NCBI GenBank assembly: GCA_965246885.1
Contig: OZ251992.1
Location: forward strand, 832,001 to 896,000
Length of the DNA: 64,000 bases
Reading direction: 5' to 3'
From: Abditibacterium sp.
GTDB taxonomy: Bacteria > Armatimonadota > Abditibacteriia > Abditibacteriales > Abditibacteriaceae
Below the pieces are notes generated by a model that saw only the letters and a program-made list of their open reading frames with translations, did no database searches and was not told the DNA's origin. A program made the position numbers and the translations under genes. Numbering within the stretch: position 1 is the first letter of the stretch; every line of letters begins with the position of its first letter. This document shows positions 6,397 to 27,567 of this stretch, one piece after another.

Positions 6397-7881
6397 ATGA
6401 ACTTCCAATCCATCTACGGCTTCGAGACCGAATACGGCATCACGGTCGAGGGCGCCGACGCATCGGCGCTCATTGCCGCGTCGCGCGAAGTGGTCAAGGC
6501 CTACTCGTCGCTTGGCCTGCCCGCCGTAACGCGCTGGAATTATCGCGCCGAAGACCCGCGCAACGACCAGCGCGGCTTTCACGTCGAGCGATTGTCCGTT
6601 GACCCGGTTGACGCGCAGTTCGACCGCCCCGGCGAACGCGCGCACTCGCCCGAATCCGACCGGTGTGACCATCTCCTTGCCAACGGCGCGCGCTTTTACA
6701 ATGATCACGGGCACCCCGAATACTCCACGCCCGAATGTGCCGACTTGAGAAGTCTCGTCGCGCACGACAAGGCGGGCGAACGCATCGCCCTCCAATGCGC
6801 GCAGATTTATGGCGCCCGCATCGGCAAGAGCGTCGAGATTTGGAAGAACAACACCGACTTTCACGGCGCGAGTTACGGCTCGCACGAATCCTACTTGGTG
6901 CGCCGCGATGTCGCATGGGATGCCTTCGTCGCGGGCCTCGCGCCGTTTTTGGCGACGCGCATTATCTTCTGCGGCGCCGGAAAAGTCGGTTGCGAGGAGC
7001 GCGGGCACGACTGCGACTACCAACTCTCGCAGCGCGCCGACTTCTTTTCGGTGCTTCAAAGCGTGGATACGCTCAACAACCGCCCGCTCGTCAACACGCG
7101 CGACGAACCGCACGGCGACGCGCGCGCCTTTCGCCGCTTGCACGTCATCGCGGGCGACGCCAACATGAGCGAATGGGCCATCGCCCTGCGCGCCGGAACG
7201 ACGAACTTGGTCGCGGCGCTCATCGAAAGCGGCTGGCAGTTGGGCTTTGAACTGCGCGACCCGGTGCGCGCCATCAAGCACATCTCCCGCGACGCCAGCT
7301 ACAAATGGCCCGTCGAAACCTCACGCGGGAGCCTGAGCGCCGTAGACGTGCAGCGCGCTTACTTGGAAGGCGCCCGCGAACTGAACCTTCCCGGCTCCGA
7401 CTGGGTCTTGGAAGAGTGGGCCGAGGCGCTCGATACCCTCGAACGCGACCCGATGGAACTCTTCGACCGCTGCGACTGGGTCGCCAAAAAGCTGCTCCTC
7501 GACCAGTTCGCCGAAGCCGAAGACCTCGACTGGAAGCGCGACCGCCTCAGCTTGCAATCGCTCGATCTCGCTTATTGCAACGTCCACCCCGACGCCGGAC
7601 TTTACGCCGCCTTAGTCGAAGATGGCGCCATGCGCACCCTCGTCACCGACGCAGAAATCGAAGCCGCCCGCCAAGCCGCGCCCAACAACACCCGCGCAGG
7701 GGTGCGCGGCGCCCTCGTCGGGAAGTTCGCGGCGCAAATCAAGCAACTCTCTTGGGGCGCCCTCGAAACCCGCGCCGGGACGCGCTTGGCCCTTCCCGAA
7801 ACGGGCGACTTCGGGGAGATGCTCGCCCAAGTCGCGGCGGCGGGCGATATCGAGGAGTTAGCGGGGAAGTGGGGGGAGTAG
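6397..7881 (+). CDS. dop: Pup deamidase/depupylase Dop (Pup-ligase/PafA2 family)
   Basis: GFETEYGI, ANGARFYNDHGHPEYSTPEC, KNNTD..GASYGSHESY, YQLSQRADFF, LNNRPLVNTRDEPH, RRLHVIAGDANMSE. Confidence 0.88.
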   Translation: MNFQSIYGFETEYGITVEGADASALIAASREVVKAYSSLGLPAVTRWNYRAEDPRNDQRGFHVERLSVDPVDAQFDRPGERAHSPESDRCDHLLANGARFYNDHGHPEYSTPECADLRSLVAHDKAGERIALQCAQIYGARIGKSVEIWKNNTDFHGASYGSHESYLVRRDVAWDAFVAGLAPFLATRIIFCGAGKVGCEERGHDCDYQLSQRADFFSVLQSVDTLNNRPLVNTRDEPHGDARAFRRLHVIAGDANMSEWAIALRAGTTNLVAALIESGWQLGFELRDPVRAIKHISRDASYKWPVETSRGSLSAVDVQRAYLEGARELNLPGSDWVLEEWAEALDTLERDPMELFDRCDWVAKKLLLDQFAEAEDLDWKRDRLSLQSLDLAYCNVHPDAGLYAALVEDGAMRTLVTDAEIEAARQAAPNNTRAGVRGALVGKFAAQIKQLSWGALETRAGTRLALPETGDFGEMLAQVAAAGDIEELAGKWGE

Positions 7882-13681: not shown

Positions 13682-16546
13682 ATGCCGCGTTCTCTTTCTC
13701 CCGCGCCGCGCCAATCGCGGCTGACGTGGGGTATGGCGCAGGGGTTGGTTATTGCCCTCGCGCTGCTGTTCTTGCTGCGTCCGGGCGCGCTCGGCGGCCT
13801 CGCGCACACGTTGGAATGGGACACGTTGGATTGGTGGTTTGGGTTGCGGGCGCCGCGCAGTGCACGTTCGACGGCGATTCTGGCCGTTGACGAGGCGACA
13901 ATCGCGCGGTGGAACGGGCGGGTTTTCGAGGCGCGCGACGTGGCGTTGGCGCTCCGCGAACTCAAAGGGCGCGGCGCCAAAGCGGTGGCGCTGGATTTCC
14001 CGTCGTTGTGCGAGGTGCCGCTCGGCGCGTCCGATGCGGACGAGTTGGCATCGGCGATGCGCTTCAACGGAGCGGTCACGCTTCCGCTTGCGCTGCGTTT
14101 GGGTTCGGGTTCGGAAATCCCGACGAGTCCGAGCGTAGAACGGTTTGCGTTCGCGCCGGAGGAGCGCCTCGCGCCCGACGACGCGCCCCTTGCGCGCGCC
14201 GATGCCATTGTGGGGTCTCCCGGCGCGTTGATGGATGCGGCGGCGGGTGCGGGACACACCAACTTCGAGTTCGACCGCTTTGGCCGCGTACGGGCGTTGC
14301 CCCTTGATGCGCGCTTGACGGCGCCGCTTGGCGGGAATCTGAACGGGCGCTTGTTTCCCTCGCTGGCGTTGGCGACGGCGAGCGCGGCGGGGCTGGCGGC
14401 GCCCGCTCGGGAGGAGCCGATGTTGCTCAACTTTGCGCGCGGCGGGGGGGACGAAAGCCGCGCTTTTCCGGTTGTGTCGCTCGCGGCGGCGCTGCGCGAT
14501 CCGCGCTTGTTCGAGGCGTTCCGGAATCGCGCGGTGGTGGTGGGGGTGACGGCGCGCTCGTTGTGTTCGCGCTTCCCCACGCCGGGCGGGGCGCGCGTGC
14601 CGGAGTGCGTCTTGTCGGCGGAGGCGCTGGACAACCTGCTTTCCGACCGGGCGCTGCGCCGCGCGCCGCCGGTGTTGCACTGGTTTTTGACGATTCTGCC
14701 TGCCTTGGTGGTGGGCGGCTTGGCGGCGGTGTGGCGTCCGGCGAGTAGCGCCGTGCTGGCGCTGTTGTGCGCGCTCGTGGTGGCGCTAATTTCGTTTGGG
14801 ATGTTCGGGCGCGACGTGTGGCTGGACACCAGCGTGCCTTGGTTGACCATCGGCGCCGCGTGTCTGGTGGGCGTGGTCGGGCGGGCGCGGCGCCAAGAGC
14901 GGGACACCATTTCCATCGCTTCGACGGTGGACGCGCTCGCGCAGGTGGCGGACTTGGTGACGGTGGGGCGCAACCCGACGGAGCTTTTGGAGCGCGTCCT
15001 GTCGTTTGCGGCCAAGACGCTGGGCGCGAGCGGCGCGTCGGCGCTATTGTTGGAGGGAGACGGCCAGCATCTCAAGTTCGTGGCGGCCATTGGCCCGCGC
15101 TCGGCGCCGCTCGTGGGGCAGTTGGTGGCAATGGGCGAGGGCTTGGTGGGGCGGGTGGCGCGCGAAGAACGGGGGATGATCTTGGGCGATGCCGGGGAGC
15201 ACGCGGGGCGCTTCGACTTGTTGACCGGTTTGGAAACGCGCTCGCTGTTGGCGGTGCCGCTTCGGGTGCGCGGGGAAGTGGTAGGGGCGCTCGAAGTGGT
15301 GAACCGCGAAGGGGAACTGCCGTTTTCGCCCGCCGACTTGGAGCTATTGCAAGCCATCGCCAATCAAGCGGCGGTGGCGCTGGATAACGTGCGCTTGTAT
15401 AACCGGCTGGCCTTTCGCGTCGAGCAGTCGCAGGACGCGCTCGCCGTTGCCAACCGCGAACTGCAAGCGGACAAGGCGCTCATGCAAACGGTGCTGTTCT
15501 CGATGACCGATGGGCTGGTCGTGACGGACGAGTCGGGGCGCATCCAACTGGTGAACGAGGCCGCTGTGCGCTTGTTGCCGGAACTGGCGGGGGAGGAAGT
15601 GCTGGGCGAACGGCTGGCGCTCGTGCTGCCCGACTTCGCTTTGGGCGCCATTCCGCCGTCGCCCGAAGGGGACGAAGAGGAGCCGGTCATCCTGTTTCGC
15701 GGCTCGCTCGACGCGGTGCGCGCGGTCGAGGGACACGTGGCGCCGCTTCGCGGGGGGCACGGCGAGTTGGCGGGATTGGTGGCGGTGTTCGCCGATGTCA
15801 CGCAGCGCCGCCGCATCGAGCAGGCCAAAAGCGACTTCGTGTCGTTCGTGGCGCACGAGATGCGCTCGCCGCTCACTTCCATCGCGGGCTTTTCGGCGAT
15901 GCTGTCGCGCGACGAAGGAGCGGGCGCGGGGCAAAGCGCCCTGTCTCCTCCGACGCGCGCGCGGTTTTTGGGACTGATTCGCGGCGAAAGCGAGCGGCTC
16001 ACGCGGCTGATTAACACCCTTCTCGATACCGCGCGTTTGGAAGCGGGACACGCCATTGAACTCAACCGCGACGCGCTGGAGTTGGCGCCGCTGATTCAGT
16101 TGGCCTTGGAAACGCAGCGCGCGTATTCGAGCCGCCATACCCTGCGCGCCGACCTGCCGCCGCACTTGCCACCCGTTTTTGCCGACGCCGACAAAGTGCT
16201 GCAAATCCTCGTCAACCTGCTTTCCAACGCGCAGAAGTACTCGCCCGGCGGCGAGATTACACTCTCCGCGCGGACGCGCGGAGAGAGGGTGGAACTGAGC
16301 GTGCGCGATCAAGGGCCGGGGATTGGGCCGGGGCAACGCGAACTGCTGTTTTCCCGTTTTGGCCGGGGGCCGCAGTCGGCGCAAGGCGTGGGGGCGGGCG
16401 CCAAACCGACGGGGACGGGGTTGGGCTTATTTTTGACCAAGCACTTAGTCGAAGCGCACGGCGGCGAAATCTGGGTGGAAAGCGAAGTCGGGCAGGGCGC
16501 AACGTTTCGCTTCACCCTTCCCACCGAAGAGAGTTTTGCTTCTTGA
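13682..16546 (+). CDS. CHASE2-GAF-PAS sensor histidine kinase
   Basis: CHASE2-like ILAVDEATI..GAKAVALD; TM helices; GAF (LLAVPL..VVGALEVVN..ANQAAVALDN); HisKA AHEMRSPL; HATPase NLLSNA, DQGPGI, GTGLGL. Confidence 0.92.
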   Translation: MPRSLSPAPRQSRLTWGMAQGLVIALALLFLLRPGALGGLAHTLEWDTLDWWFGLRAPRSARSTAILAVDEATIARWNGRVFEARDVALALRELKGRGAKAVALDFPSLCEVPLGASDADELASAMRFNGAVTLPLALRLGSGSEIPTSPSVERFAFAPEERLAPDDAPLARADAIVGSPGALMDAAAGAGHTNFEFDRFGRVRALPLDARLTAPLGGNLNGRLFPSLALATASAAGLAAPAREEPMLLNFARGGGDESRAFPVVSLAAALRDPRLFEAFRNRAVVVGVTARSLCSRFPTPGGARVPECVLSAEALDNLLSDRALRRAPPVLHWFLTILPALVVGGLAAVWRPASSAVLALLCALVVALISFGMFGRDVWLDTSVPWLTIGAACLVGVVGRARRQERDTISIASTVDALAQVADLVTVGRNPTELLERVLSFAAKTLGASGASALLLEGDGQHLKFVAAIGPRSAPLVGQLVAMGEGLVGRVAREERGMILGDAGEHAGRFDLLTGLETRSLLAVPLRVRGEVVGALEVVNREGELPFSPADLELLQAIANQAAVALDNVRLYNRLAFRVEQSQDALAVANRELQADKALMQTVLFSMTDGLVVTDESGRIQLVNEAAVRLLPELAGEEVLGERLALVLPDFALGAIPPSPEGDEEEPVILFRGSLDAVRAVEGHVAPLRGGHGELAGLVAVFADVTQRRRIEQAKSDFVSFVAHEMRSPLTSIAGFSAMLSRDEGAGAGQSALSPPTRARFLGLIRGESERLTRLINTLLDTARLEAGHAIELNRDALELAPLIQLALETQRAYSSRHTLRADLPPHLPPVFADADKVLQILVNLLSNAQKYSPGGEITLSARTRGERVELSVRDQGPGIGPGQRELLFSRFGRGPQSAQGVGAGAKPTGTGLGLFLTKHLVEAHGGEIWVESEVGQGATFRFTLPTEESFAS

Positions 16547-16632
16547 ACTTCCACTTAGGGGTTGACGTCCACCATCGGGCGGGAGTTCTCACTGTCGCCT
16601 GTTCAGCAGTCGCCCCTCTCGCAGGAACAACC

Positions 16633-17130
16633 ATGCTCAAGAAACTATTGATTGGAGGCATCTTGGGAGCTTGCGCTCTCACTGGCCTGTCTCCCGTCGC
16701 GCGCGCCGATGGCGACCGCGACACCCGTGACCGCGATTATCGCCCCGCGCCGTATTACGGCGACCGCGACGATTATCGCCCCAACCGCGACCGTGACCGC
16801 GACTACCGTGACCGCGACGACGCCCGCGACCGCGACTACCGGCGCGACCGTGACCGCGATACTCGTGACCGCGATGACTACCGCCGCAACGACTACCGCC
16901 GCAACGATTACAATCGTGGCGGCAACTACGGCTATAGTGGCGGTATCACCGTCTACGGCGGCGGCACTAACCGCCCCCGTTACGATGACCGCTATGACCG
17001 TCGCCCCCGTTACGACGACCGCTACGACCGTCGCCGCCGCTATGACGACCGCCCGCGCTACGACAGCCAAGGCCGCATCATCACCGGCGCCATCGTGGGC
17101 GGGATTCTGGGCGCCATCATCGCCCGCTAA
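16633..17130 (+). CDS. Secreted Arg/Asp/Tyr-rich low-complexity protein with C-terminal glycine zipper
   Basis: AGGA SD; signal peptide ending VARA-D; RD/RDY and RYDDR repeats; GAIVGGILGAII tail. Confidence 0.75.
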   Translation: MLKKLLIGGILGACALTGLSPVARADGDRDTRDRDYRPAPYYGDRDDYRPNRDRDRDYRDRDDARDRDYRRDRDRDTRDRDDYRRNDYRRNDYNRGGNYGYSGGITVYGGGTNRPRYDDRYDRRPRYDDRYDRRRRYDDRPRYDSQGRIITGAIVGGILGAIIAR

Positions 17131-19001: not shown

Positions 19002-19454
19002 ATGGCCCAGCATCCCGACCCCTGCGACATCTGCGCGCGCCTCGACCGCATCGCGGCGAGCGACTACCCGCCCTTCATCCACGAACTGCCAACCGGCTTT
19101 TTCGTGCTTGGCGACTCGCAGCAGTTCCCCGGCTACGCGCTTCTCTTGTCGAAGGCGCCCGTCGCCGAACTCGAAGAGTTACCCATGCCCGCGCGCATGG
19201 CGTTCCTGCGCGACGTGGCGCTCTGTTCCCAAGCCGTTGCCGACGTTGTGCGCCCGCACAAGATGAACGTCGAATCGCTCGGCAACGTCGTTCCGCACCT
19301 GCATTTCCACTTCTTCCCGCGCCAGCTATCCGAGCCGGAGCCGACCAAACCCGTCTGGACGCAGCAGCACGAAGGAGCGCCCTTTGACCCCGCCCGCGAT
19401 GGCGCGCTGGTCGCCCGCCTGCGGGCGCGGGTGGTAGAGTTGGCGCGCGCTTAG
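19002..19454 (+). CDS. HIT family hydrolase
   Basis: CDIC; GNVVPHLHFHFFPR histidine triad. Confidence 0.92.
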   Translation: MAQHPDPCDICARLDRIAASDYPPFIHELPTGFFVLGDSQQFPGYALLLSKAPVAELEELPMPARMAFLRDVALCSQAVADVVRPHKMNVESLGNVVPHLHFHFFPRQLSEPEPTKPVWTQQHEGAPFDPARDGALVARLRARVVELARA

Positions 19455-20206
19455 TCGCCGTCGTAGTGCTTGGTGGCGGCGGGGTCAGTCCACATGGCGT
19501 CGAACTGCCCCGCGCTCACGGTGAACTTCGCGTGCCCATCGGCGAACAAGAAACTCCCGCCCGTCGGGTGCCACTGTGCGTAGTAGAAAGGCGTGCCGGA
19601 GTAGCCGTAGGTCGCGCCGCCCGCGTCCATGTCGGGGCCAAACCAAGGCAGCATTTCGTCGCGCATGATGCGCGTTTCGGCGGCACGGGCGAACATCGAG
19701 TCTTTGACGGTGTGCGGCTGCACGGTGTTGGGGTTGGCGGGGTCGGAAAGGATGTTGTTTTGGCTCGATTCCCCGGCGACCACCGAATACGCGCCGCTCG
19801 TGAAGCGATACGAGGAGCCGTAGCACGCGGCGTAGGAGCTTTGCTTGGTGGCGTCGAGGGCGCAGTCGCCGTCCGACGCGATGGCTGGCCCGCCGATGTC
19901 GTTGGGGCACTTGAACACTTGCAGGCTCCGCGTGTAGGGCTGCAACTCCAACTCGACGCCCTTGTGGCCGGGGTTTCCAGAAGCGGGGACGGAGTTGTAA
20001 GCGTAAAATATCGGCCACGTTTCGTCGTTGTCTTGGACGTATTGCAGGGTGCCCAAGCCGATTTGCTTCATGTTCGACAGGCAGTTAACGTCGCGCGCCT
20101 TTTGGCGGGCGCGGGAGAACGCGGGGAACAGGATGGCCGCAAGAAGGGCGATGATGGCCACGACGACGAGGATTTCGAGCAGGGTAAAAGCGGAGCGGGT
20201 TCGCAT
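19451..20206 (-). CDS. Prepilin-type N-terminal cleavage / DUF1559 / H-X9-DG protein, TPP-riboswitch controlled
   Basis: SA-FTLLEILVVVAIIALLAAILFP; CLSNMKQIGLG..QYVQD; FKCPND; WHPTGGSFLFADGHAK. Confidence 0.92.
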   Translation of the reverse strand: MRTRSAFTLLEILVVVAIIALLAAILFPAFSRARQKARDVNCLSNMKQIGLGTLQYVQDNDETWPIFYAYNSVPASGNPGHKGVELELQPYTRSLQVFKCPNDIGGPAIASDGDCALDATKQSSYAACYGSSYRFTSGAYSVVAGESSQNNILSDPANPNTVQPHTVKDSMFARAAETRIMRDEMLPWFGPDMDAGGATYGYSGTPFYYAQWHPTGGSFLFADGHAKFTVSAGQFDAMWTDPAATKHYDGD

Positions 20207-20295
20207 GACAAAAGGGGCGCACCGCTTGCTTCGCCCGAAAACAGGGGAGAAGTGCCGGTTGCCCGTTCTGCCCGAAGCCGGAACGGTCAACGAGT

Positions 20296-20393
20296 GCTTC
20301 CCTCCGCTGGTATGATCCAGATCAGGTGATTGGGGTCGGCTCCAAGCCCTCTCAGCCGCATCTCCGATTGGTCGGATGGCGGCGCCCCCAGCA
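20296..20393 (-). ncRNA. TPP (thiamine pyrophosphate) riboswitch
   Basis: Minus strand reads GCTGGGGGCGCC...GGCTGAGAG...GACCC...ACCTGATCTGGATCATACCAGCGGAGGGAAGC, matching the hallmark CTGAGA and ACCTGA-N-GG-NN-AT-N-CCAGCG-N-AGGGAA elements. Confidence 0.93.
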
Positions 20394-20455
20394 AACGCTG
20401 CGTTATTTGATTAGGTAACAGTGTGACGGCTTGCGGCGCCCGCCGGTTCGCTTCC

Positions 20456-21271
20456 TTAGTTCGCGCAAAGTGGCACGAGGCTTTGATACATCTCGCGCGC
20501 GGCATCGGCGGCGGGCAATTCCCATAAGCGCTCGCTGAACATTTCGATGGAAAAGGCGCCGTTGTAGCCATTGCTTTCCAAGGCGGCGATAATGGCGGGC
20601 AAATCGAGGTGCCCTTGGCCGGGAAGTTCGCGGTCGGCGTTGCAATCGGAGAGTTCGCCCGGTTTGTTCTTCATGTCGTCGAGGTGAACGTGTTTGATAA
20701 AGGGCACGGTTTGCGCGTTGATATGCTCGAACTTGGTGGCGGTGCAATGATAGTGCGCGGGGTCGAAGAGGACGCCGAAGTTGGCGGCGCCGCTCAAGCG
20801 GGCGATTTCAACGGCGCTTTGCAGGGTTTTGACGGCGCCCCAGTTGAACTCCAAGCACAGCGTCACGTTCATCGGCGCGACGGCGGCAGCGAGTTCGCCA
20901 AACAGTTCGCCATAGCGTTGGAGCGGGTTTTCGAGTTCGCCGATGGGTCGGTAGTCGGTGCCCATCACCATGTTTTGCGGCGCTCCGCCGCCCATTTCGG
21001 CGAGAAAGCGCGCTTTTTCGAGAATGGTCGCACGGTTGGCGGCGCAGCTGGCGTCGTCGCCGTACGCCTCGGCCCCGCAAAAGAAGCCGCCGATGCCGCG
21101 CAAGCCGCGCGCGGCGAGGGCGTTCTTGACTTGGACGGCGCCCAGCCCTTCCAGTTGGCCGAGCGCGAACTCGACTTGTGTAAAACCCGCCGCCGCGTAC
21201 GCGTCGAGGGCGGTTTCGAGGCTGTCGAAGCGCGTCGAAACCGAGTTGATGCCCAATTGAGACCGTTGCAT
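20456..21271 (-). CDS. Sugar phosphate isomerase/epimerase (xylose-isomerase-like TIM barrel)
   Basis: LCLEF, LFDPAH, HVHLDD, RELPGQG, FSIEMF metal-ligand motifs. Confidence 0.88.
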   Translation of the reverse strand: MQRSQLGINSVSTRFDSLETALDAYAAAGFTQVEFALGQLEGLGAVQVKNALAARGLRGIGGFFCGAEAYGDDASCAANRATILEKARFLAEMGGGAPQNMVMGTDYRPIGELENPLQRYGELFGELAAAVAPMNVTLCLEFNWGAVKTLQSAVEIARLSGAANFGVLFDPAHYHCTATKFEHINAQTVPFIKHVHLDDMKNKPGELSDCNADRELPGQGHLDLPAIIAALESNGYNGAFSIEMFSERLWELPAADAAREMYQSLVPLCAN

Positions 21272-22733: not shown

Positions 22734-23387
22734 TTAGTTCGGGCACATGGTGTAGGCGTATGCATCAGGAGCGTTTGGAGGCGCCGGACAACTAAAATCG
22801 TAAGTCGCGTTTTCCCCGACGGATTTGACGTGGCCATCCACGAACAAACAGTTCTTCCTCTCAAGGTGTCTGGCACCATTCCCTGGGCTTGCGAGAAAGA
22901 ACTGCAGACCCGTGTCGTAGGAAGAAGGGCCAACTTCGTATGAATCGAAACAAAGGATGGTGCGGTCGGGAGCGGCTACTTTGCTGGAACTCATGTTGGT
23001 GATGTACAAATTGATGGCATACGAGGTGTAGGCACTAAATTCTGTGAAATTGACCCGTGCCGAAGATGGGCATTGATAAAGCCGCGCGTCTTTGAGATAC
23101 GGAAGAACCCTTTTTGTCCAGCCCACTCCCTGCCCATAAGGAAGAGTGGTGGCGTTCGCTGGAACATTCAACTCATCGCCATTCCAAGCGACAGGAAGAC
23201 GCCCCGCGTCCGCTTCGTACATTTGCAACGCCAAGCCGATTTGCTTGAGGTTGCTTTGGCACTGTGTCGAGCGCGCCTGCTCGCGCACTCTGGAAAACAC
23301 GGGGAAAAGGATGGCCGCCAATATCCCGATGATCGCTAACACCACAAGGATTTCCACGAGGGTGAACGCTGCTATTTTTGTTTTCAA
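22734..23387 (-). CDS. Prepilin-type N-terminal cleavage / DUF1559 / H-X9-DG protein
   Basis: [60 protein letters not shown]. Confidence 0.9.
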
Positions 23388-26949: not shown

Positions 26950-27567
26950 ATGTTCTGGAAACGACTTTACCCCGTTGAAAAGCTCGCAGTTGCGGGCGCA
27001 ATGGGTTTAGTGGCGGCGCTCTTTGTGTTTCCGATGTTCGCGCGGTCGCGCGACACTGGCGTGCGTCGCGCGCCGTGCCAATCGAATCTCAAACTGCTCG
27101 GCCTCGCTTTCGCGCAGTACGAGCAAGACCACAACGACCAATTCCCACCCGCCAAGGCGGATGGCGCGGCGTATGGTTGGGCCGGTTTGCTCTTGCCCTA
27201 CACGAAATCAACGCAACTTCTCCAGTGTCCAAGCGAGCCGCACGATGGGCAACCCAAGCCCAAACTCACCGGATACACAGATTACTGGTATGACTCGCGC
27301 TTGTTCGGTCGCGCAATGGGCGATCTGGGCTTACCCGCGCAAGTGTTGATGTGTGGAGACGGCAACGACGGCACGGAAACGACAAACGCGCGCTACGCGC
27401 TTTCCAGTTTTCCACCCAAATGGACAAACGACGAAAAATCGCCGATGTTCCGGCACGAGGGAGCGGCCAATTACCTCTTCGCCGATGGGCACGTCAAGGG
27501 CATAACGCCGCCGGACGCGGTGGCGCTGTGGAGTCCGCAGGGGCCGCCAACCAACGGCAACCCATAG
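26950..27567 (+). CDS. DUF1559/H-X9-DG protein with degenerate prepilin motif
   Basis: CQSNLKLLGLAFAQYEQD, LQCPS, RHEGAANYLFADGHVK; N-terminus LYPVEKLAV instead of FTLxE. Confidence 0.82.
   Translation: MFWKRLYPVEKLAVAGAMGLVAALFVFPMFARSRDTGVRRAPCQSNLKLLGLAFAQYEQDHNDQFPPAKADGAAYGWAGLLLPYTKSTQLLQCPSEPHDGQPKPKLTGYTDYWYDSRLFGRAMGDLGLPAQVLMCGDGNDGTETTNARYALSSFPPKWTNDEKSPMFRHEGAANYLFADGHVKGITPPDAVALWSPQGPPTNGNP

Follow-up and report, generated by a model that had tools for sequence, protein, structure and literature searches.

Why does a thiamine pyrophosphate (TPP) riboswitch stand directly upstream of a single gene for a pilin-like protein? The question is raised by a 64,000-nucleotide stretch of the genome of Abditibacterium sp. 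(phylum Armatimonadota; contig OZ251992.1, positions 832,001 to 896,000), referred to here as the window, on whose minus strand an earlier note, made from the sequence alone, had recognized a TPP aptamer followed by a prepilin-like gene of the DUF1559/H-X9-DG type. Our analysis confirms this observation: the riboswitch, the gene family, the linkage between the two, the operon partners found in relatives and an accompanying pattern of thiamine auxotrophy were all observed. On the evidence of comparative genomics, we consider it probable that the pilin-like protein is a thiamine-repressed component of the cell envelope with a capture role in thiamine acquisition.

A covariance scan of the window matched a single Rfam family, RF00059, in a full-length alignment (model positions 1-105, not truncated) that scores well above the gathering score of 54.3 bits (Table 1) and encloses the aptamer previously placed at 20296-20393 on the minus strand. 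Both the pyrimidine sensor (CUGAGA) and the pyrophosphate sensor (ACCUGAUC...GCGGAGGGA) are visible in this alignment, and CTGAGA and ACCTGA are invariant across an alignment of 20 aptamers. When the whole genome (3.55 Mb in 2 contigs, 92.7% complete) was searched with RF00059, the only match was this same aptamer. The pilin-like gene starts at ATG 20206, 75 nucleotides past the Rfam match and 90 past the aptamer end given in the earlier note, and the hairpin that the note reported downstream of the aptamer (CCGTTC...GAACGG, 20286-20263) is real. The list of open reading frames begins this frame at TTG 20290, within the aptamer; orthologue alignments favour ATG 20206. The 41 open reading frames scanned in the window include no gene for thiamine metabolism or transport, and the next gene, a convergent one with a HIT domain, overlaps the stop codon of the pilin-like gene by 4 nucleotides, which bears out the description of a single-gene unit. 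The arrangement of pilin-like and HIT-domain genes is repeated in a genome of the same genus (G003). The kinase and carrier genes that belong to the unit in thiamine salvage operons are missing from this one and present in those of some relatives.

The predicted product begins with a class III prepilin signal, in which Glu is the fifth residue of the mature chain and a Pro follows in the hydrophobic helix, at mature position 22. Its Pfam and NCBIfam scores exceed the cut-offs for the N-terminal methylation motif (N_methyl PF07963, residues 1-27, 26.4 against 21.2 bits), the prepilin cleavage domain (TIGR02532, 24 against 16.3 bits), DUF1559/SBP_bac_10 (PF07596, 36.8 against 23.3 bits) and H-X9-DG (TIGR04294, residues 212-228, 20.3 against 19 bits), so that the FTLLE motif, DUF1559 core and H-X9-DG tail of the original description all stand, with the reservation that the PF07596 match is confined to profile positions 2-27 of 268. 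Both the PF07596 and the TIGR04294 assignment are marginal, and the central region of the protein is peculiar to its clade. F7, T8, L9 and E11 do not vary in any of the 77 pilin-like sequences aligned, and residue -1 of the signal is Ala in this protein and Ala or Gly in seven aligned orthologues; cleavage by a prepilin peptidase may be inferred. The residues H213, D223 and G224 are common to the clade and the paralogues of the same genome. As for a named pilin type, the match to the GspG equivalog TIGR01710 covers the N-terminal 51 residues only and remains at 27.6 bits against a cut-off of 88.85, and the other named pilin equivalogs of NCBIfam likewise score far under their cut-offs.

The pairing of riboswitch and pilin-like gene is conserved among the close relatives of the protein. 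A profile of the globular part of the protein was run against a phylum sample of 151 Armatimonadota genomes and gave 53 strong matches (E 1e-61 to 1e-103) in 51 genomes, every one of which (53/53) has RF00059 upstream on the same strand, at 148-340 nucleotides from the start of the profile match or, for two tandem second copies, at 864 and 1020. The only other matches were three weak ones (E 1e-20 to 1e-25), none with RF00059 upstream. The sample gave 126 TPP hits altogether, 51 of which are the riboswitches of these pilin-positive genomes, and in 46 of the 51 genomes the linked riboswitch is the sole TPP hit (Infernal, stricter filters). A set of 41 related genomes held 22 TPP riboswitches, 7 of them directly upstream of alignable pilin-like genes and the remainder preceding thiC, thi4, thiG or thiE. 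Relatives are also encoded in 196 stretches of a species-representative collection; among the best 80, all titled as Armatimonadota lineages, our own covariance model built from the 20 aptamers found the aptamer upstream in 80/80 loci (62.8-88.4 bits). The survey of orthologues that the earlier note had suggested thus found the riboswitch retained throughout, and because the aptamer is conserved in 53/53 and 80/80 orthologues, a chance pairing is excluded.

A divergent pilin-like subfamily, missed by the profile at 1e-20, lies behind a TPP riboswitch in 7 of 8 further loci inspected, which come from genomes without a profile match (G078, G164, G042, G055, G092, G068 and G080 for the subfamily); at the eighth locus the riboswitch precedes thiM-thiE-thiD-like genes, as judged by eye from the translations. 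With these 7 added, a pilin-like gene comes after at least 58 of the sample's 126 TPP hits. Within the divergent loci (L114-L120), L114 consists of riboswitch, pilin-like gene, kinase and symporter of the sodium:solute symporter family (SSF), and L118 and L119 of riboswitch, pilin-like gene and SSF.

The genes that follow the pilin-like gene in relatives also point to thiamine. Gene order could be analysed in 76 of the 80 loci (4 were dropped when the script found no start codon), and the next same-strand gene encodes a thiamine pyrophosphokinase (PF04263) in 28/76, in one case with a tandem second pilin in between. A symporter of the SSF type (PF00474) is found in 17/76, after the kinase in 16 and straight after the pilin in 1. 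In genome G033, the pilin, kinase and SSF genes abut or overlap, and the kinase scores 126.6 bits against the TIGR01378 cut-off of 76.4. A different neighbourhood was seen in 8 loci (L046, L050, L051, L054, L084, L086, L096 and L035), where a polysaccharide deacetylase/NAGPA protein of 588-616 amino acids is encoded on the same strand after the pilin (after the kinase in L035), with TatA next in 7 of the 8; this is probably a lineage-specific and unrelated synteny.

The distribution of thiamine genes in the phylum sample follows the same line. ThiC was found in 3 of 51 pilin-positive against 83 of 100 pilin-negative genomes, whilst a pyrophosphokinase passes the cut-off in 48 of the pilin-positive and 13 of the pilin-negative genomes; the pilin-positive genomes without such a kinase are the window genome (G000), G151 and G122, which has a 63.5-bit hit. 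Within the genus of the window, both ThiC-negative genomes (G000 and G003) carry the pilin, six ThiC-positive genomes are without it and G002 has both, a contrast that is cleaner than the phylum table. A symporter resembling ThiV, an SSF member, occurs in 42 of the 151 genomes, among them 30 of the 51 pilin-positive ones (the intersections of pilin-positive genomes with this symporter, and with the Plug domain treated below, were made by hand), and at every locus compared it adjoins the kinase, with coordinates judged by eye. The other 21 pilin-positive genomes, the window genome among them, show no ThiV-like SSF, which argues for placing the pilin-like protein ahead of the inner-membrane carrier, in a role not tied to any one such carrier.

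The window genome itself appears, from its gene content, to depend on vitamin B1 from outside. Profile searches of the genome found no ThiC, ThiE, thiamine pyrophosphokinase, ThiT or ThiB and no TonB-dependent Plug domain, ThiD gave a best score of 29.7 bits against a cut-off of 205, and neither profile search nor tblastn found a ThiV-like SSF symporter. A tblastn search with the ThiC, Thi4, ThiE, ThiG, thiamine pyrophosphokinase and SSF proteins of relatives returned one weak ThiG-like hit (30% identity over 85 amino acids). The sole thiamine-pathway enzyme found was ThiL (G000:C1:1710711-1711640; 290.9 bits against 184), and since ThiL alone is left, the vitamer may be thiamine monophosphate. 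The lone Pnu-family gene (L126:3537-4148, at about 1097000) was considered as a possible PnuT and rejected, as it passes the PnuC equivalog (65.5 against 42.45 bits) and overlaps a gene with a NadR-type kinase domain (L126:4010-4669), because of which it is likely to be a transporter for nicotinamide-riboside salvage. The check for thiamine transporters proposed in the earlier note thus came out negative for ThiB, ThiT and a ThiV-like symporter, and the riboswitch-controlled pilin-like gene is the only visible B1-acquisition gene of the genome. Filament machinery is present: the genome encodes 2 prepilin-peptidase-family (Peptidase_A24) proteins, 7 T2SSE-type ATPases, 6 secretins and LpxC, as well as about 60 DUF1559 paralogues (62 PF07596 matches). 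Six secretins and seven such ATPases in 3.55 Mb without a Plug domain are unusually rich for the genome size.

Folding of the leader gives some indication of how the switch might act. The unconstrained fold (-63.0 kcal/mol) pairs the G-run of the aptamer with a downstream CUCCCC in a long-range GGGGG/CUCCCC helix and keeps the CCGUUC-N12-GAACGG hairpin inside it; hairpins resembling this one, with changed pairs, were seen by eye in two leaders of the same genus. The candidate terminator hairpin and the CCGUUC-N12-GAACGG hairpin are mutually exclusive, and when the aptamer is enforced the terminator hairpin forms (-54.6 kcal/mol). The minimum free energy of the whole leader is no better than that of shuffled sequences (z -0.44). 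Our own script detects a U-run behind a G+C-rich hairpin in 46 of 74 orthologous leaders, many of these terminators being textbook-like, and the riboswitch of most relatives appears to act by premature termination of transcription. The modelled folds of the window leader would fit an OFF switch that works in the same way.

The structural model is compatible with a pilin. AlphaFold2, given 77 sequences, returned a predicted local distance difference test (pLDDT) score of 94.6 and a predicted template modelling (pTM) score of 0.88 for the full protein, and 94.8 and 0.90 for the globular part. With either model, Foldseek found no match in the PDB at E <= 0.001, and a profile search of PDB sequences, with a best E of 0.63, found no solved relative. 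When 48,161 chains were compared by VIA-align, pilins and pseudopilins came out on top, all with Z scores below the level that the tool treats as secure: PilA4 (6xxd; Z 5.4, root-mean-square deviation 3.6, 123 residues) led, with a type IVb pilin (9iuf; Z 4.8), EpsG (4lw9; Z 4.7) and ComP (5hz7; Z 4.2, 100 residues) behind it, and about 100 of the 224 globular residues were aligned in these pilin matches. No two-lobed binding-protein chain was among the VIA-align matches listed, an absence that is not an exclusion, and Foldseek gave one periplasmic peptide-binding chain at E 4.9 and a probability of 0.01. Taken at these modest Z scores, the model suggests a pilin fold with a large insert, and no solute-binding fold was seen despite the SBP_bac_10 name.

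Phylogeny separates the riboswitch-linked proteins from the other members of the family in the same genome. We built a quick maximum-likelihood tree from 27 proteins linked to the riboswitch, 5 members of the divergent group and 52 same-genome paralogues, two paralogues that lack the motif having been dropped. The riboswitch-linked clade forms one side of a branch with a support of 96 in the Shimodaira-Hasegawa-like approximate likelihood ratio test (SH-aLRT), the divergent group is set off by another (98), and both lie within a cluster of 34 rows (SH-aLRT 88) together with two own-genome paralogues. At 31 positions a residue is conserved in at least 90% of the clade and at most 15% of the paralogues; these positions, which include Y70, H81, E85, Y125, R134, R179, R182, E184, Y200, Y202 and W212, are rich in Tyr, Phe, Trp, Arg, His, Glu and Asn, a composition that might resemble that of a small-molecule pocket. 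The large insert, of about 120 residues, is distinguished by a set of aromatic, Arg, His, Glu and Asn residues that is specific to the clade. In their globular parts, 76 orthologues drawn from several orders show 46-64% identity to the window protein. A protein-atlas look-up returned DUF1559-type clusters only, from Armatimonadota, Planctomycetota and Verrucomicrobiota.

Two paralogues of the window genome deserve mention for their neighbours. A DUF1559 prepilin-like gene (L111:436-1224) lies 28 nucleotides upstream of an ActP-like cation/acetate SSF symporter gene (L111:1255-2937; the pair at G000:C1:1989828-1992329); the symporter scores 718.7 bits to the ActP subfamily model, under the cut-off of 750, and the pair has no riboswitch. 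The paralogue nearest to the riboswitch clade, its sister at SH-aLRT 97 (L125:3164-4090, G000:C1 at about 2258000), overlaps the start of a gene for a calcineurin-like phosphoesterase of 553 amino acids (L125:1539-3200) whose N-terminus, with RRRFLQ, resembles a signal for twin-arginine translocation (Tat). These cases hint at exported enzymes, besides carriers, as partners of DUF1559 proteins.

In the logic of its parts, the closest known system is the TPP-riboswitch operon OMthi-pnuT-tnr3 of Bacteroides, which serves uptake and trapping with a component in the outer envelope, a carrier in the inner membrane and a thiamine pyrophosphokinase and is split in some genomes with the riboswitch kept (PMC5613172). 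The fullest Armatimonadota operons resemble it in consisting of riboswitch, pilin-like gene, pyrophosphokinase and SSF symporter, and differ from it in that the first gene encodes a type IV pilin-like protein rather than a TonB-dependent barrel and the carrier is an SSF member instead of PnuT; the window unit, unlike that of Bacteroides, has neither kinase nor carrier, and neither is detectable in the genome. By analogy, the pilin-like gene may be seen as occupying the operon position of the TonB-dependent OMthi. A further parallel is ThiV of SAR11, a riboswitch-controlled sodium:solute symporter reported as a carrier of hydroxymethylpyrimidine (HMP) (PMC11452348). The partner symporter of Armatimonadota also belongs to PF00474 and is under the same type of riboswitch control, a likeness at the level of the family; unlike it, ThiV of SAR11 functions without a pilin-like partner, and no ThiV-like protein was found in the window genome.

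Pilin-type signals on proteins for nutrient uptake have a precedent in the bindosome of Sulfolobus, in which the proteins that bind sugars bear class III signal peptides and depend on an assembly system resembling that of pili (PMC3047682). The pilin-type signal peptide on a proposed nutrient-binding protein is common to both; however, the bindosome is archaeal, its ABC-type (ATP-binding cassette) solute-binding domains are fused to the signal, its partner is an ABC transporter and it has no riboswitch, whereas the window protein would be pilin-folded throughout if its modest-Z matches are followed. To our knowledge, the bindosome is the only use of pilin-type biogenesis for solute uptake. The minor pilin ComP binds DNA outside the cell, and retraction of the pilus brings the DNA through the outer-membrane secretin. 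The likeness to ComP is one of shared pilin fold only; its cargo is DNA and not a 265-Da vitamin, and no retraction ATPase, secretin or cargo is linked to the pilin-like protein. With the DUF1559/H-X9-DG family (PF07596, TIGR04294), for whose prepilin-like members we know of no function, the protein shares the N-terminal methylation motif, a CxSN-Q-G segment and the C-terminal H-X9-DG; unlike in the rest of the family, riboswitch linkage is limited to the main clade and the second, divergent one. A literature search, the coverage of which stops short of subscription journals, returned no paper in which a protein of the pilin-like or DUF1559 type is connected with a TPP riboswitch.

We propose that sufficient cellular TPP would turn off the pilin-like gene through the riboswitch, and that thiamine starvation would induce this envelope component in Armatimonadota unable to make thiamine. 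The protein would then bind thiamine or a thiamine phosphate outside the inner membrane, and the captured vitamin would be handed to the inner-membrane carrier of the species concerned, whatever its type. In this proposal, we infer the binding of a ligand, the location of the protein, its assembly by the pilus or secretin machinery and the identity of the vitamer taken up.

Several points weigh against it. Related genomes are not independent, and the co-occurrence tables therefore describe a pattern and are not a test. Thiamine is small enough to cross the outer membrane through porins, so that a dedicated device is not obviously needed. No thiamine kinase or inner-membrane carrier can be named in the window genome, which leaves the route from capture to TPP incomplete. 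The idea that the pilin replaces missing TonB-dependent transporters held only partly: the window genome has no Plug domain, yet the domain occurs in 60 of the 151 genomes of the phylum, including 14 of the 51 pilin-positive ones, and the pilin is therefore not simply a substitute for absent TonB-dependent transporters. On the side of the protein, the match to PilA4 is modest, the insert of about 120 residues between helix and sheet found no fold match, and the divergent subfamily is without the 31 signature residues in our own alignment, so that, unless this alignment is poor, no single pocket extends across both groups. On the side of the switch, the candidate terminator of the window is weak, and a strict consensus scan found no terminator, and no promoter either, on the minus strand.

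If the pilin-like protein does capture thiamine, it could do so in more than one way. As a vitamin-specific receptor pilin within a short retractile pilus or pseudopilus, it might pick up thiamine or a thiamine phosphate at the outer membrane or outside it and be pulled back through one of the six secretins, so delivering the vitamin to the periplasm, a mechanism borrowed from cargo-binding pilins such as ComP that would be driven by ATP and independent of TonB; we regard this version as unlikely. It is equally doubtful that the protein is an obligate binding subunit, anchored in the inner membrane and handing thiamine directly to the SSF symporter, as for tripartite ATP-independent periplasmic (TRAP) or ABC carriers. 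The symporter that shares the operon at 17 of the 76 loci, the DUF1559 paralogue 28 nucleotides upstream of the ActP-like SSF, the name SBP_bac_10 of the Pfam family and the Sulfolobus precedent of class III signals and pilus-like assembly (PMC3047682) speak for such a subunit. However, the 21 of 51 pilin-positive genomes without a ThiV-like SSF, that of the window included, do not fit an obligate partnership, and in several genera with a kinase-SSF pair elsewhere the only detected riboswitch is before the pilin. No periplasmic-binding-protein fold was among the fold matches listed, which by the rule of the tool is not an exclusion, and the PF07596 match that lends the name covers the first 26 profile positions only. 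Weighed between these two versions, the receptor pilin with its secretin and the binding protein anchored in the membrane, the independence from any one carrier tends to favour a role that precedes the inner membrane.

Other explanations dispense with capture of the intact vitamin. The pilin fold and the complete pilus machinery of the genome, together with a single-gene unit without transporter here and in many relatives, would suit a specialised pilin for adhesion or for movement towards B1 producers that does not bind thiamine; such a starvation behaviour seems improbable to us, considering the operons shared with pyrophosphokinase and symporter and the conservation of the globular part, which is 46-64% identical in all 76 orthologues and has 31 near-invariant residues specific to the clade. 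Exposed adhesive pilins vary fast, and conservation of this kind is unusual for them. The earlier note had proposed capture of thiamine or of a precursor, and it is the thiamine half that comparative genomics supports. A precursor or breakdown product (HMP, formylaminopyrimidine or thiazole) as the ligand would have a parallel in the riboswitch-controlled ThiV of SAR11, reported as a likely HMP carrier (PMC11452348). The conserved partner thiamine pyrophosphokinase uses intact thiamine, the genome has no ThiD or ThiE with which moieties could be joined, and pilin-positive genomes are mostly ThiC-less and kinase-positive; because of this enzyme and these absences, precursors are less likely than thiamine or its phosphates, and we judge their capture to be very improbable. 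Riboswitch-controlled salvage genes for thiamine moieties are common all the same. Finally, the protein could be a pseudopilin of a type II secretion system that, in B1 starvation, exports an enzyme freeing bound or phosphorylated thiamine, for which the weak GspG-type N-terminal matches, the structural match to EpsG (Z 4.7), the six secretins and the apparent operon of the nearest paralogue with a phosphoesterase that has a Tat-like N-terminus might be cited. We think this highly improbable: none of the 76 loci holds a co-regulated exported enzyme, the TIGR01710 score of 27.6 is far from 88.85, and the large conserved insert is foreign to the matched GspG/PulG chains of 119 and 130 residues.

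The features of the locus are collected in Table 1. Two further DUF1559 paralogues lie within 8 kb of this locus, at 22734-23387 (-) and 26950-27564 (+), neither with a riboswitch. Elsewhere in the window, 6397-7881 (+) encodes a protein of the Pup-ligase family (PF03136, 490 bits), pupylation being best known from Actinobacteria, and 16543-17130 (+) is an open reading frame of 195 amino acids with a hydrophobic N-terminus, a long low-complexity Asp-Arg-Tyr tract (DRDYR, RDRD) and no Pfam match.

Table 1. Features of the riboswitch-pilin locus, in window coordinates
Feature	Position	Strand	Basis or detail
TPP riboswitch aptamer	20282..20399	-	RF00059, 69.0 bits, E 1.8e-11
Hairpin CCGUUC-N12-GAACGG	20263..20286	-	Sequence; in folding, part of the ligand-free form
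Candidate weak intrinsic terminator	20237..20273	-	Hairpin 20273-20245, -9.1 kcal/mol, then CUGUUUUC 20244-20237 (own script)
Prepilin-like DUF1559/H-X9-DG gene, 251 amino acids	19451..20206	-	Span includes stop codon 19451-19453
Class III prepilin signal	20116..20206	-	Leader MRTRSA, then FTLLE; PF07963 and TIGR02532
H-X9-DG motif, H213-x9-D223-G224	19535..19570	-	TIGR04294
HIT-domain gene, convergent, closes the transcription unit	19002..19454	+	PF01230, 42.6 bits
Xylose-isomerase-like TIM barrel, upstream same-strand gene	20456..21271	-	Pfam

Vitamin acquisition under riboswitch control is already known, but a component of the pilin-like type is not known to have been described for it. Because the riboswitch names the ligand pathway unambiguously, this clade gives the DUF1559 family its first specific and testable link to thiamine. 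The window is the barest case, with one riboswitch, one gene, no kinase or known carrier found and ThiL only. The finding suggests a route to vitamin B1 for auxotrophic Armatimonadota, with pilin-positive genomes making up about one third of the phylum sample (51/151), and is relevant to the exchange of vitamins in soils, mats and waters. If the protein is indeed a ligand-binding pilin, the import of small molecules would join the known uses of type IV filament machinery. Should it be a receptor pilin, it would represent a new class of outer-membrane import system, and the very large DUF1559/H-X9-DG families found in Armatimonadota, Planctomycetota and Verrucomicrobiota would amount to collections of receptor pilins for nutrient uptake, each specific for its substrate.

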